Of a stretch of DNA of 44,313 nt, positions 30,001 through 33,000 are shown piece after piece (within the stretch, counting starts at the first letter, position 1; every line of letters begins with the position of its first letter). The stretch comes from a candidate division WOR-3 bacterium (GTDB taxonomy: Bacteria > Hydrothermota > Hydrothermia > LBFQ01 > DSFT01). The stretch covers positions 1 through 44,313 of the forward strand of contig CBFGJN010000009.1 in assembly GCA_965649115.1 (NCBI GenBank), read 5' to 3'. A program made the position numbers.

Positions 30001-33000
30001 GATTCAGTTGGTGCATCTATTGATGTTAATCCAAGTGGCTCAGAAGGAACACCTTTACATGATGATGTAAATTGTAAATATGACCCTTCAAATGGTGGTC
30101 AAAGTGGAACAAAAGAGTTTAATAGCGGTAAAGCAAGATTGAAAAATAGAGCAAGCGGTGCTATAAATGAAATAAATTATGGTTCTGATTGTAAATCTTC
30201 ATTCTCTTCTGGAAGTTTATATGGTTATGTTCCGAATTTTGGTCCAAATGGAGGAATTTTAGGTATTGAAAAAATGATAAATTATAAATTGAAAACAGAA
30301 CCTGCTTATAAATTATTCTCTAATCAAAATGTAAATTCTGAAATTATAAGTAAATTCCAAAAAATAAAGAATAAAGTTATTGTTAAGAATGCTCAAATGA
30401 AAATAAAACTTGAAAAACTAAAAGCTATGTACTAGGGGGCTCTTGCCCCTTATTTTTTCATAAAGGAGAAAGTAAGATTATGTTAAGGTTACTAATAACA
30501 ATAACCCTTTTTATAAGCATAGGATATGCTCAAACAAGCAAAATTGTTTGGATGAATTATAGTGCAACAGGATGTATAACCTGTCATAGGATAGCATCCG
30601 TGAAAATGAATGATACACTATATATCTTTGGAACTTTTCATTATAATAATAAACTTAATCCATTTCTTATTGCAGTTGATAGTGCTTTAAATATCAAATG
30701 GTATAAGGCTTTTAGTCATAATTTGGATAATTTGGCAATTGATAAAATTGTAAAAATTAATGATAGCTTAATTGCTATAAGTGGAGGACATTCTCCTTTG
30801 GATGGTAAATGCCCAAACTATAATTGTTCATTTGTAGGTTTATTCAATGTCAAAAATCAAAATTTCATATGGTCTAAATATAGAGTTGGTGGCAGTGGAG
30901 TTGGATTATCAGTTGTAGGATTGGACTTTGATGGTAAAAACTTAATTTTTTCTGCTCAAAGTAATACTAATAATAATGGTTCTTGGATTTTTAAAACTGA
31001 TTTAAGTGGAAATATACTATGGCAGAAATTAATTTGGACAGGTTGGGAATTTAATACGATGGATATAGCCTTTGATGGTTCTAATTATGTATCACTATTT
31101 TATACCTATTCCTCTGGAAATCCTACTATTATAAAATTTGATACATTAGGCAATTTTCTATGGGCAAAAAGTTATGAATTTGGATATAGCGAAAGTGCTT
31201 ATAGAATTATTGCTGATAATAATAGTTATGTTGTCGTAGTTCTTGGTTGTAATAATCCCTGTGGAGGAGATCTTAATATAATTGTTTTTAAAACTGATAC
31301 AAGTGGAAATATCTTATGGTCAAAGTCATATTCTTCAAATGTTGCTGGATGGGCTAGTGAGGATAGAGCTTATAACATAGCATTTGATTATGATGGGAAT
31401 TATCTTGTTAGTGGTTTTATAAGGGCAAGTTCAAGTTCATCTTATCCAATTGTCTTAAAAATAAATAGAAATAATGGAAGTTTAATATGGTCAAGAGTTT
31501 GGAATACACCACCACCGAATACATCTTCAAATGAAGCAAAAGGCATAATATCCATTGGACAAGGAAAATTCTATTTATTGACATTTGTTGGAAATGGAAC
31601 TGATGCAAGTGGAGGATTTGCAATTATTAGAGAAGATACTTCTTTGAGCTCAGCTTGTACTTCTTCCTCATCTACCTTTAATGAAAGTTCAATAACACCT
31701 AGTGTATCAAATTTAACTCCCTCTTTACAAGATGCTAATTATTCTTTAAATGATTTAGCATTTTCTTCTTATATACCTAACATCAACCAACAATCTGGTT
31801 GTGAGATAACTTCCAACTACGAATTTTATAAATCTTGTTCATTTGAAATTAAAGGCAATAGGGGTTATATTGATATAAAACTTAAAGAAAGGAATAGTGT
31901 TATTATTTATGACATAGTTGGAAATGTTGTTTATAGTGAATTTTTTGAAGGTGAAAGGAAAGTTAAGGTAAAGAATGGGATTTATATTATTAAAGTAGGA
32001 AGAGAAAAAGTGAAAATTATTGTAAAATAGTGATTTTATTGGGGGCATAGCCCCCATAACCGAAATATGGGCATTTTAAAGCCGAAGGCTTAAATTTAGG
32101 GTGGATGATAAAATAAAGAAAAGTAAATGATTTCAGAATTACTAGACAAAACATTTTGCCTTTGCTTTGTCCAATAAATAATGTTAAGTGCTTGATAGTC
32201 AATAACTTATTAAAAATTCATTAAAATTCTTGAAATAATGGGGGAATTTAAGGGGGGCGAAGCCCCCCAAAGCATAAGAATGGGTATTTTAAAGCCGAAG
32301 GCTTATATTCAGGGTGGGTGGGAGAAGTATAGAAATAATTATATTTTCAGAATTACTAGACAAAGCATTTTGCCTTAAACCTTATCCTTTAAAATTTGAA
32401 ATATGTCAATCGGTTTCTTAAAAGGTGATATAATTCCATTAATGCCAAACACAATAAATGAAATTAAAAAATTAAATTTAGAAATTTTCTTTGAAAAGAA
32501 TATAGCTCAAAATATATACATAGATGACGAAGAATTTGAAAAATTAGGAGCAAAAGCTTTAAATAAAGAAGAAATTTTAAATAGTTGTGATATTCTTGTT
32601 TATTATAAATTTAACTATAACGATATTGAATATATTAGGAGAGGTTCAATTCTAATTGGCTTATTTGACCCATTTGTAAATAAAGAAAAATTAAAATTAC
32701 TTTTGGAGAAACAATTAACAATTTTTTCATTAGAACTAATACCAAGAATTTCAAGAGCACAAAGTATGGATGTTTTAAGTTCATTAGCAACAATAGCAGG
32801 TTATAAAGCTGTAATTATATCAGCATATTATTTCAACAGGATTTTTCCATTACTTATGACATCTGCTGGAAATTTGCTTCCCGCGAAAGTTTTCATAATT
32901 GGTGCTGGCGTAGCAGGTTTGTCTGCTATTGCTACTGCTAAAAGACTTGGAGCATATGTATCCGCTTATGACGTCAGGATAAGTGTTAAAGAACAGGTTG

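Follow-up and report, generated by a model that had tools for sequence, protein, structure and literature searches.

Why does a short repeat end at a set distance from a promoter-like motif, in front of a gene, and why do two copies stand in tandem at the same place? The question is raised by a locus in the 44,313-nt stretch of a candidate division WOR-3 genome analysed here (the window). The initial annotation had placed a tandem pair of the repeat upstream of a gene at 32014..32396, and a truncated and a complete copy do precede the ATG at 32403 (Table 1). We consider it probable that the 205-bp repeat is a MITE, a non-autonomous derivative of a ~1.05-kb IS903-like insertion sequence (IS) of the IS5 family, and that these elements are targeted to host promoters.

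The repeat and its parent element

The truncated copy has lost its left end and kept its right end, which is followed by a 9-nt spacer; BLAST extends it to 32013, with 77% identity between 32013-32150 and positions 61-202 of the complete copy. The complete copy, with termini TGCTTTGTCCAATAA on the left and ...TTACTAGACAAAGCA on the right, is 98-99% identical to copies on contigs C66 and C22 and is thus young. Its right target duplication ends at 32376, 10 nt before the promoter-like box. From the end of the box to the ATG there are 5 nt, and from the end of TTTAAAAT to the start codon 7 nt. The gene behind it heads a co-directional gene run, and the box is retained before the orthologous gene in three other genomes (G002, G004 and G001), with no element at that place.

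Table 1. Copies of the repeat and associated features in the window (strand as +, - or unstranded)
Feature	Position	Strand	Evidence or context
Two head-to-tail copies (2-119, 129-295)	2..295	-	9-nt spacer between them
Cluster of three copies/fragments (4534-4667, 4673-4860, 4859-4929)	4534..4929	-	
Truncated copy	20546..20638	-	right end 19 nt from 1-mismatch box; gene starts 20507 (-)
Truncated copy	27267..27353	-	right end 18 nt from CTTTAAAATTT; gene 26505-27230 (-)
Truncated older MITE copy	32033..32152	+	nhmmer profile positions 83-204, E 1.3e-24
Target duplication, left copy TTTTGCCTT, 9 bp	32154..32162	.	sequence reading; same as 32368-32376
Complete MITE, 205 bp	32163..32367	+	nhmmer positions 1-205, E 1.8e-57
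Target duplication, right copy TTTTGCCTT	32368..32376	.	perfect 9-bp match to left copy
Host promoter-like box CTTTAAAATTT	32387..32397	+	starts 19 nt past the MITE's last base
Alanine dehydrogenase / PNT family gene, 357 aa	32403..33476	+	PF01262 2.8e-64, PF05222 4.2e-21
Cluster of degenerate copies: 36040-36191 and 36206-36267 (+), 35983-36086 (-)	35983..36267		
Further partial copy, upstream of 39653..39831	39504-39637		
Minor-class copy	39653..39831	+	right end 11 nt from box (TG + CTTTAAAATTT); gene at 39860
Copy cut by contig end	44258..44313	-	right end 12 nt from box; LpxC-FabZ gene 42989-44227 (-)

A search of 31950-32450 against Rfam returned sub-threshold matches only, and a consensus scan found no terminator and sigma-70-like promoters no commoner than in shuffled sequences. 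The MITE RNA folds with a z-score of -2.9, mostly through pairing between its two ends, a fold for which we claim no function. Contigs of RNA runs contain ~5% of the sampled words. When contigs of four hot-spring runs were aligned to 20000-39999, no clean joint was found across the tandem pair near 32033-32367; the many short joints in this comparison come from repeats. In contigs of two other hot-spring runs, the block 35983..36267 occurs as a variant with a 127-nt internal deletion.

The high genomic load of the repeat, put at 6.0% in the initial annotation (783 matches, 110,930 bp), holds with our own profile: 722 matches at E<=1e-3, of which 223 reach both element ends, have a union of 96,615 bp, or 5.2% of the 1,848,020 bp of the whole assembly, and make up 40% of the DNA outside ORFs of at least 90 aa. 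The 9-bp target duplications, previously counted as 59 perfect and 10 one-mismatch cases among 154, were likewise recovered: complete copies with flanks numbered 201, of which 89 show a perfect 9/9 duplication, 12 have one mismatch and 100 have no clear duplication. Five shifted registers gave 0 each and permuted pairs 0.8. Over duplication lengths of 6-12 nt, perfect matches other than at 9 nt occurred only at 8 nt (n=11). The first ~24 nt of the repeat are shared with one end of an IS (end B) and the last ~18 nt with the other (end A). A non-coding sequence of 205 bp that shares its ends with an autonomous element, makes target duplications and occurs in many copies, the repeat has the properties of a MITE.

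The initial annotation had found no transposase, a statement now superseded. IS end B encodes an N-terminal fragment of 56 aa that matches the IS5-family model NF033579 (23.6 bits, E 3e-5). P0001, a protein of 300 aa from public data, shares 92% identity with this fragment and 96% (47/49) with a variant on contig C50, and its last 14 residues are identical to those encoded at IS end A. The IS interior is unassembled in G000, and the full transposase is read from P0001, itself 92-96% identical to the G000 fragments. Against NF033579 (cut-off 140), P0001 reaches 245.5 bits and covers model positions 2-288 of 289; it carries PF01609 and PF13737, and its matches in Pfam and NCBIfam at E<=1e-3 are confined to DDE_Tnp_1-type families (IS5, IS4, IS1182, IS1380, IS982, IS701). 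It is collinear with IS903B transposases over residues 4-290, at 26-27% identity. The two ends and P0001 predict an IS size of ~1.05 kb (67 nt + 903 nt + 82 nt); IS903 measures about 1.06 kb, and a complete relative in locus L018 is 922 bp long. The end TGCTTTGTCCAATAAATA matches the IS903B ends GGCTTTGTTGAATAAATC / GGTTTTGTTGAATAAATC (locus L150) at 14/18 positions, counted by eye. Judged from these similarities, the parent element is an IS903-like IS of the IS5 family with one predicted 300-aa DDE transposase. Further searches gave no match for an exact 32-nt IS-interior pattern in metagenome_contigs and genome_contigs, nothing past the shared first ~26-29 nt for the 236-nt IS end in 18 genomes of the order, and no match to the 56-aa fragment by tblastn against plasmids. 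Searches for rRNA, made to place the organism, were negative as well.

A probable host promoter box and the placement of the right end

The box belongs to the host and not to the element. Throughout the genus (5 genomes) it is 2.2- to 4.0-fold above control, including in G001, which has 360 boxes against 91 in the control and no element match, and G004, where element matches amount to three short partial ones of 23-43 nt. Orthologous promoters carry it without the element, and 187/426 promoter-type boxes are free of any element over the nearest 70 nt. Of the genes whose neighbour is divergent, 48% have the box in front; the share is 46% for co-directional genes at gaps of at least 80 nt, but 2.6% for operon-internal genes. 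The distance to the start codon peaks at 6-11 nt, and an SD-like tetramer accompanies 2/331 box-led genes versus 284/811 operon-internal genes. A short fixed distance to the start codon, a place before the first genes of transcription units and the lack of a Shine-Dalgarno sequence are what characterize bacterial leaderless promoters of the -10 type. Because it leads transcription units and is not accompanied by a Shine-Dalgarno sequence, the box most likely acts as a -10-type promoter from which this genus makes leaderless mRNAs. The initial annotation had proposed a promoter role from position; position is still its basis, now strengthened by the start-codon gap, the bias towards leading genes, the enrichment across the genus and the Shine-Dalgarno deficit.

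The right ends of the repeat keep a fixed distance from this box. Taking the first occurrence of exact TTTAAAAT, 148/437 right ends lie 19-20 nt from it and 44 lie 10-14 nt from it, while the 305 left ends peak on neither strand. For free ends we allowed one mismatch to CTTTAAAATTT and set aside the 109/421 right ends that adjoin another element end. The box then starts at offsets 17-20 from 176 of the 312 free right ends (the major class), at 9-13 from 55 (the minor class) and elsewhere from 7; for 185 free left ends the corresponding numbers are 5, 4 and 14. The earlier claim that the left end never faces the box is thus very close to correct without holding in full. The peak is 2 nt wide: 170/238 box occurrences fall at offset 18 (n=42) or 19 (n=128). 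About a quarter of the free right ends (74-81/312) lack the box at a canonical offset, as do 24/85 duplication-confirmed copies with a free right end, several of which face variant boxes. Canonical sites represent ~0.2% of the position-by-orientation choices in non-ORF DNA, yet they account for 74% of free right ends.

The parent IS follows the same rule. Its contig termini number 16 for end A and 10 for end B, and the box lies at 18-19 nt in 11/13 free end-A flanks and in 0/10 end-B flanks; the initial annotation had given 10/16 at 19-20 nt and 0/8. In other metagenomes, relatives whose transposases are 61-88% identical (best segment) have 7/9 right-type ends 18-19 nt from a box with at most 2 mismatches, and 0/5 left-type ends at box distance. 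At the loci examined in G002 and G003, 11/14 free right ends and 0/11 free left ends are canonical.

We propose that the transposase would cut its target with a 9-bp stagger, like IS903, and that, unlike IS903, it would select its target through a sequence beyond the duplication, namely the host box CTTTAAAATTT, positioned 5-11 nt before the start codons of genes that lead transcription units. The element would enter with its right end toward the box. In the major class (offset 18-19) the duplicated 9 bp would occupy the stretch from 19 to 11 nt ahead of the box, and in the minor class (offset 10-12) they would sit 8 nt closer. Since there is no conserved -35 element, the promoter would survive the insertion, and the same site would be regenerated beside the new copy, open to further insertion. 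Repeated insertion would then build head-to-tail arrays with 9-nt spacers and the youngest copy nearest the promoter. We infer that the transposase complex reads the box DNA directly, by sequence or shape, and that orientation depends on how the two ends differ past position 16.

Direct recognition, tethering, end resemblance and selection

Instead of reading the DNA itself, the transposase could be tethered by a host protein at the promoter, such as the RNA polymerase holoenzyme, a sigma factor or another box-binding protein. Ty3 and Tn7 offer analogies. Ty3 and the TRE5-A element of Dictyostelium, eukaryotic retroelements that target RNA polymerase III genes via protein tethers, integrate at a fixed distance upstream of genes under the guidance of the transcription apparatus, a safe haven in compact genomes. 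A one-sided, oriented choice at a fixed promoter distance is what tethers give. Tethering would also suit a transposase with no extra domain relative to IS903 (P0001 covers nearly the whole family model) and a target that has no conserved base in or beside the duplicated 9 bp. Counted from the predicted transcription start, however, the two insertion windows span roughly -35 to -26 and -27 to -18, and both would fall within the polymerase footprint familiar from sigma-70 complexes. In the minor class, moreover, TG precedes the box in 10/23 cases versus 21/151 unoccupied promoters (p 0.0018), an effect of DNA sequence that a tether would not lead one to expect. We regard tethering as unlikely.

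The element might instead insert beside sequences that resemble its own end, as is known for IS30 and IS911; the box would then mimic part of the terminal repeat, and the 9-nt spacing of arrays would be the same phenomenon. The arrays lend this some weight, since 93/109 head-to-tail neighbours are exactly 9 nt apart, 56/101 confirmed insertions adjoin a neighbour's end, and the spacer equals the left flank of the upstream copy in 15/38 testable pairs. So does the minor class: next to its duplicated 9 bp stands TGCTTT, the six bases that open the repeat, in 10/23 cases, versus 21/151 unoccupied promoters. The major class does not fit: mean matches to repeat positions 1-9 are 3.83 at offset 19 and 2.89 at offset 18, versus 3.13 at unoccupied promoters, and the register that end resemblance predicts, offset 18, is the rarer one (42 vs 128). 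The pooled test gives p 0.014, yet p 0.03-0.04 is also reached with a reversed-repeat control and with T content; we found the resemblance of major-class targets to the terminal repeat weak and unconvincing. Solo copies, and IS copies that have no neighbour, also obey the rule. On contig C3, an IS 18 nt from a box duplicates GACAAAGCA, which resembles the last 9 nt of the MITE right end; if it is that end, the position of this IS was set by the box and not by the resident end. Insertion guided by end resemblance appears to us quite improbable.

Selection must also be weighed. Insertion could be random or AT-biased, with purifying selection in a compact genome leaving only those copies that lie harmlessly upstream of promoters and in a harmless orientation. 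The genome is indeed compact (87% ORFs); only 23/722 matches lie mostly within ORFs, as selection would give; lethal insertions go unseen; and about a quarter of free right ends are non-canonical. The peak is nonetheless 2 nt wide, whereas selection would allow any site farther upstream, where DNA can expand freely, as the arrays show. Its signature should also strengthen with time if it acts as a slow filter, and the opposite is seen: the major class makes up 30/39 free right ends (77%) among copies at least 95% identical to another copy, 41/73 (56%) at 85-95% and 26/59 (44%) below 85%. The near-identical IS copies are canonical at 11 of their 13 free ends. Just 1/101 duplication-confirmed copies is nested inside another copy, although the element fills so much of the non-ORF DNA.

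The arrays have an age order of their own. The promoter-proximal member is the younger in 25/34 pairs (Wilcoxon 6e-4), and in 23/30 when age is taken from the profile score. The array spacer equals the right flank of the downstream copy in 38/72 testable pairs; set beside the 15/38 for the upstream copy's left flank, this suggests that array growth was not purely promoter-proximal or that flanks have been scrambled since.

Empty sites were sought by paired flanks for contig C18 and none was found, the flanks of each block mapping to different contigs in G001, G002 and G004. Two arrays present only in G002 face short sites in G000 (C24:19563-19618 and C8:1224-1301), with flanks too diverged for clean empty sites. 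Empty sites in sister species are diverged, and the exact pre-insertion sequence is unreadable from them. For the C22 site compared with G002, BLAST coordinates were used, as a global MAFFT alignment misplaced the right flank.

Because the youngest copies are the most canonical, arrays are youngest at the promoter, nesting is rare and the IS of relatives obeys the same rule, the evidence leans clearly towards targeted insertion over selection alone. The initial annotation had allowed that selection could contribute. It certainly does, since immediately lethal insertions are invisible, but as the sole cause we consider it very unlikely. That the box and its 19-nt spacer belong to the element, as a mobile promoter cassette in no need of targeting, is barely credible: the right-end-to-box distance is constant and both IS and MITE carry an internal box-like sequence near their left ends, but the terminal ...GCA, which lies 19 nt before the box, is directly adjoined by variable 9-bp duplications, there is no conservation in the spacer, and the box is enriched in congeners where the element was barely found or not at all and stands without it at orthologous promoters.

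Relation to known elements and significance

The pattern described in the initial annotation is not without precedent. According to the accessible part of one account (PMC3942029), TnGBS, ISLre2 and ISKra4 keep to one orientation and land 15-17 bp upstream of the -35 box of sigma-A promoters. These DDE elements share with ours the single orientation, the fixed upstream distance and a right inverted repeat on the promoter side; there, asymmetry of the repeats is proposed to set orientation, and the behaviour is read as gene avoidance (PMC3942029). In the part of a survey available, Firmicutes make up 92% of ISLre2-containing genomes. Their transposase, however, is Mutator-like (p-MULT), whereas P0001 matches DDE_Tnp_1-type families only, and their reference point is a -35 box, as against a -10-type box without a -35 at 18-19 nt here. 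The accessible part of that account mentions neither a MITE derivative nor a genome load of ~5% (PMC3942029). Insertion upstream of promoters in a set orientation thus has a precedent, and the present elements would be a variant of it with an IS5-family transposase; in the limited library of literature searched, we found no prior report of promoter targeting by IS5-family elements or MITEs.

Among elements related by sequence, IS903 and IS903B resemble ours in the 9-bp target duplication (for IS903, Table 1 of PMC2577343, the part of that source used), the single transposase of ~300 aa and the terminal repeat, though the proteins share only the low identity given above. The same table gives the IS903 target as a weak palindrome, WTTYA-N9-TRAAW, flanking the duplication (PMC2577343). 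Here, unlike in IS903, nothing beside the duplication is conserved, and site and orientation alike would be set by a one-sided box at a distance of 10 nt. ISAjo2-type elements of the IS1202 family also insert in one orientation, 5 bp from a host protein-binding site, but, as far as the accessible text describes them, they differ in family, repeats and size (1.5 kb) and use the XerC side of dif/pdif sites, of which a replicon has few (PMC10132070). Correia elements of Neisseria and other bacterial MITEs are likewise abundant, lie mostly just upstream of genes and can influence expression; Correia elements carry their own promoters, and no aim at a fixed distance from a host promoter is described for them in the accessible part of the source (PMC10969869). 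In our case, by contrast, the MITE would be aimed at a promoter that belongs to the host.

A bolder proposal, which we put forward as doubtful, is that an IS903-type transposase without an extra domain evolved to read the host's leaderless promoter box, directly or via a bound sigma factor, so that promoter-targeted DDE transposition would have originated a second time, independently, in bacteria. Over half of the box-type promoters have the MITE in front of them, in every case with one and the same A/T-rich right end and with hairpins from about -35 outward. Under this proposal it may, beyond a tolerated passenger, be a working part of the promoter, either as an upstream element or as an insulator against read-through from the neighbouring gene.

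If targeting is true, DDE transposases of a second superfamily would have come independently to use promoters as a safe haven, in this case in a thermophile from a candidate lineage and with a -10-type box, not a -35 box, as the anchor. The system would be minimal, consisting of a single 300-aa protein, a pair of short ends and a box of 11 bp, and a tractable model of how site and orientation are chosen. The element would also mark promoters: its right ends would point to several hundred transcription-unit starts and reveal the promoter grammar of an uncultured genus, a leaderless CTTTAAAATTT box with no -35. Occupying ~5% of the genome and 40% of its non-ORF DNA, and with synteny breaking at its arrays, the element is probably a main driver of genome rearrangement in the genus.

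Distance and orientation of insertions relative to the box

The G000 assembly (1.85 Mb, 99 contigs, 27% G+C) includes the window as contig C9, where a complete MITE copy stands between two direct repeats ahead of a promoter-like box (table). The MITE termini, TGCTTTGTCCAATAA and TTACTAGACAAAGCA, form an imperfect inverted repeat of 15–16 bp, and this copy shares 98–99% identity with copies on two other contigs. By BLAST, the truncated copy upstream of it reaches 32013, a position among the final codons of the 516-aa ORF, ahead of its stop. Element sequence may therefore form the end of this gene, unless the AT-rich match arose by chance. 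Elsewhere in the window, a three-copy element cluster (4534–4929) lies directly upstream of a gene for an 1131-aa MmeI/Eco57I-like type IIG restriction-modification enzyme (4968–8363, + strand).

Features of the element-bearing locus on contig C9
Feature	Position	Remark
516-aa ORF, last codons	ORF 30480–32030; stop 32028–32030	at the start of the interval 32014–32396
Left-truncated repeat copy	32033–32152	profile positions 83–204
Nine bases TTTTGCCTT, left copy	32154–32162	preceding the complete MITE
Complete 205-bp MITE copy	32163–32367	starts TGCTTTGTCCAATAA, ends TTACTAGACAAAGCA
Nine bases TTTTGCCTT, second copy	32368–32376	directly after the MITE, ten bases before the box
Box CTTTAAAATTT	32387–32397	ten bases beyond the right TTTTGCCTT
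Alanine-dehydrogenase/PNT-family gene	ATG at 32403	downstream of the box

A profile built from 133 near-full copies (E ≤ 1e-3) gave 722 matches genome-wide, covering 96,615 bp or 5.2% of the assembly, close to the 783 matches and 6.0% of the initial annotation. These matches account for 40% of all the DNA that lies outside ORFs of at least 90 aa, and only 23 of the 722 lie mostly inside such ORFs. Identical 9-mers flanked 89 of 201 complete copies with flanks, and 12 more differed by one base; each of five shifted registers gave 0, and permuted pairings averaged 0.8. The duplicated 9-mers vary between copies and have no consensus. We conclude that the copies arose by transposition, not by tandem duplication or conversion. 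Half of the complete copies lack the duplication, which would be the expected product of recombination among hundreds of copies. Genome-wide, copies with a right end and no left end (217) are 2.6 times as numerous as the reverse (83), and older, promoter-distal copies seem to be eroding from the left side. On contigs of an independent hot-spring run (X7), bins holding the element reached summed depths of 7826 and 2472, compared with ~90–165 in the bins beside them (about 15–60 times as high; window 32006–32672 and 39343–39999), which fits a very high element copy number in other populations too.

The first exact TTTAAAAT beyond right ends (n = 437) fell at 19–20 nt in 148 cases and at 10–14 nt in 44, and left ends (n = 305) showed no distance peak for it on either strand. 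The box CTTTAAAATTT was also scanned with at most one mismatch beyond 421 right ends, 109 of which abut another element end. At the 312 free right ends it occurred 176 times at offsets 17–20 (128 at 19, 42 at 18), 55 times at 9–13 (28 at 11) and 7 times elsewhere; the corresponding counts at 185 free left ends were 5, 4 and 14. The positioning of right ends claimed in the initial annotation was thus recovered with our own profile; its statement that left ends never face the box at these distances stands as regards a peak, but not for those few left ends. The asymmetry it described for the autonomous IS sharing the MITE's ends was also borne out: the box lies at 18–19 nt in 11 of 13 free flanks of end A (the right-end type) and at that distance in 0 of 10 flanks of end B (the left-end type).

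At the loci covered in the congener G002 and in G003, 11 of 14 free right ends were canonically placed relative to the box, and 0 of 11 free left ends were. Eight loci from other metagenomes, encoding relatives of the transposase (61–88% identity over the best segment), had seven of nine right-type ends at 18–19 nt from a box (at most two mismatches), one at 11 nt, and 0 of 5 left-type ends canonical. We conclude that the positional rule is not confined to this genome.

Host origin and probable promoter character of the box

The box 11-mer exceeds its reversed control 2.2- to 4.0-fold in all five genomes of the genus and about twofold in the sister genus, an excess absent from the other 24 genomes searched. 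G001, a congener with no element match, holds 360 boxes against 91 controls, and a further congener, G004, has only three short partial element matches (23–43 nt). In G001, G002 and G004, orthologues of the window's gene have retained the box, equally far from the start codon, and lack an upstream element, and 187 of 426 promoter-type boxes in G000 have no element within 70 nt. We conclude that the box belongs to the host.

For ORFs of at least 80 aa, the gap from TTTAAAAT to the start codon peaks at 6–11 nt. Among genes with a divergent neighbour, 48% have the box in front, as do 46% of co-directional genes whose gap is at least 80 nt; for genes no more than 25 nt from a co-directional gene upstream, the share is only 2.6%. 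A Shine-Dalgarno-like tetramer was found before 2 of 331 box-led genes, compared with 284 of 811 operon-internal genes (35%) and 8% of background 17-mers; no conserved upstream (-35-like) position was detected. From these patterns we infer that the box probably acts as a promoter for leaderless mRNAs. A single such box, CTTTAAAATTT, appears to be used across the genus 5–11 nt before start codons without a conserved -35, and the lack of a Shine-Dalgarno sequence after it would imply that leaderless mRNAs are widespread. The RNA runs listed contained only ~5% of sampled words, as contigs only. Examples of the box in the window lie at 32387–32397 and in the regions of 27236–27246 and 39843–39853. 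MITE positions ~38–52 hold a degenerate version of the host-type box carried by the IS, CTTATAAAAATTTT, followed by ATGGGG, from which copies might fire transcription towards the downstream gene.

The parent IS and proposed recognition of the box

Contig termini of two kinds (16 end A, 10 end B) reach ~125 nt into a longer element with the MITE's ends. The initial annotation had found no transposase; at end B, however, an ORF begins, and the 56 residues encoded there match the N-terminal part of the IS5-family transposase model NF033579 (NCBIfam). A search of public proteins returned a 300-aa transposase, P0001, 92% identical to this fragment and 96% identical (47/49) to a variant on contig C50. 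End A encodes exactly the last 14 residues and stop of P0001, which scores 245.5 bits on NF033579 (cut-off 140), contains domains PF01609 and PF13737, and aligns end to end with the IS903B and ISVa1 transposases at 26–30% identity. The element's terminus matches the IS903B ends GGCTTTGTTGAATAAATC (plasmid record) at 14 of 18 positions, and IS903 duplicates 9 bp of target (PMC2577343, Table 1). Because transposase matches, termini and duplication length agree, the parent is, judged by sequence, an IS903-like member of the IS5 family, with an inferred size of ~1.05 kb. Its interior was found neither in the G000 assembly nor in 18 genomes of the order, and an exact pattern search of two public collections gave no match. 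The transposase gene has ATTTAAAATTTT six bases upstream of its ATG, a host-type box within end B (for example L005:1–236, - strand).

The choice of cut is one-sided and oriented: the 9-bp stagger spans 19 to 11 nt ahead of the box, or 11 to 3 nt in the other class, and no signal lies in or beside the duplicated bases. We favour a transposase complex that would read box DNA directly. Alternatively, a tether through polymerase or sigma could guide the transposase; we rate this main rival lower because both insertion windows would lie inside the usual polymerase footprint. Under direct reading, orientation would follow from how the two ends diverge past position 16; end asymmetry is proposed to play the same role in Mutator-like promoter-targeting elements (PMC3942029). 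The box might also be mistaken for an element end. Support for this comes from the minor class only, in which 10 of 23 boxes are preceded by TG, compared with 21 of 151 at unoccupied promoters (p 0.0018); for the major class, any resemblance goes no further than T-richness would account for.

Selection, array growth and relation to known systems

Canonical sites represent ~0.2% of position-by-orientation choices in non-ORF DNA, yet 74% of free right ends lie at them. Selection alone is further disfavoured as the source of this pattern by four results. Element DNA is a large, presumably neutral target, yet among 101 copies with a confirmed duplication just one sits within another copy, and 56 of the 101 abut a neighbour's end across exactly nine bases. 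The canonical share of free ends falls with age, from 30/39 (at least 95% identical to another copy) to 41/73 (85–95%) and 26/59 (below 85%). Of 34 pairs within arrays, 25 have their younger member on the promoter-proximal side (Wilcoxon 6e-4; sign test 0.009), as expected if repeated hits on one site displace older copies upstream. On contig C3, an IS 18 nt from a box duplicates GACAAAGCA, which reads like the last nine bases of a MITE right end nearer the box; if so, the box, not a resident end, set the position of the IS.

Head-to-tail neighbours are 9 nt apart in 93 of 109 cases, and by profile score the promoter-proximal member is younger in 23 of 30. Among testable pairs, the spacer is identical to the right flank of the downstream copy in 38 of 72 and to the left flank of the upstream copy in 15 of 38; these matches and the copies without duplication speak against purely promoter-proximal growth.

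Synteny between congeners is broken at most element blocks, so few clean empty sites exist. The clearest one concerns a young solo copy (C22:19977–20182) that is flanked by AAGATTTAT and lies 18 nt from a box. Its two flanks are collinear in G002, 34 nt apart (242 nt in G000); this element-free stretch is bounded by the same pair of divergent boxes, the short spacer itself having diverged. At C16:31077–31282, a young copy and an older degenerate one are both absent from G002, where the two divergent boxes abut; the insertion at C5:34807–35011 is common to both genomes. Along C18:4000–23999, each element block has its left flank mapping to one contig or place and its right flank to another in G001, G002 and G004, and element-carrying transcription-unit boundaries coincide with synteny breaks. 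Two inverted copies at C18:10068–12570, each with a perfect duplication and facing a promoter box, bracket ~2.1 kb absent from G002, which has a single copy there; the segment may have been acquired in the manner of a composite transposon, or G002 may have lost it by deletion.

TnGBS, ISLre2 and ISKra4 insert 15–17 bp ahead of the -35 box, their right repeat pointing towards the promoter (PMC3942029). Their transposases are Mutator-like, whereas P0001 has no match to that kind. IS903 prefers a weak palindrome directly flanking the duplication (PMC2577343), which is not seen for this element. The available parts of a review (PMC10969869) and a survey describe bacterial MITEs that carry their own promoters, as well as median loads of about nine per genome, and in them none is described as aimed at host promoters, unlike the MITE here, aimed at a host box. 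No IS5-family element that targets promoters came up in the literature searched. The overall reading of oriented, positioned insertion upstream of the box is real and supported, and we conclude that promoter-directed, oriented insertion occurs in a second transposase superfamily. It differs from known promoter targeting in its anchor, a putative leaderless -10-type box, and in the amplification of a MITE to ~5% of a compact genome.
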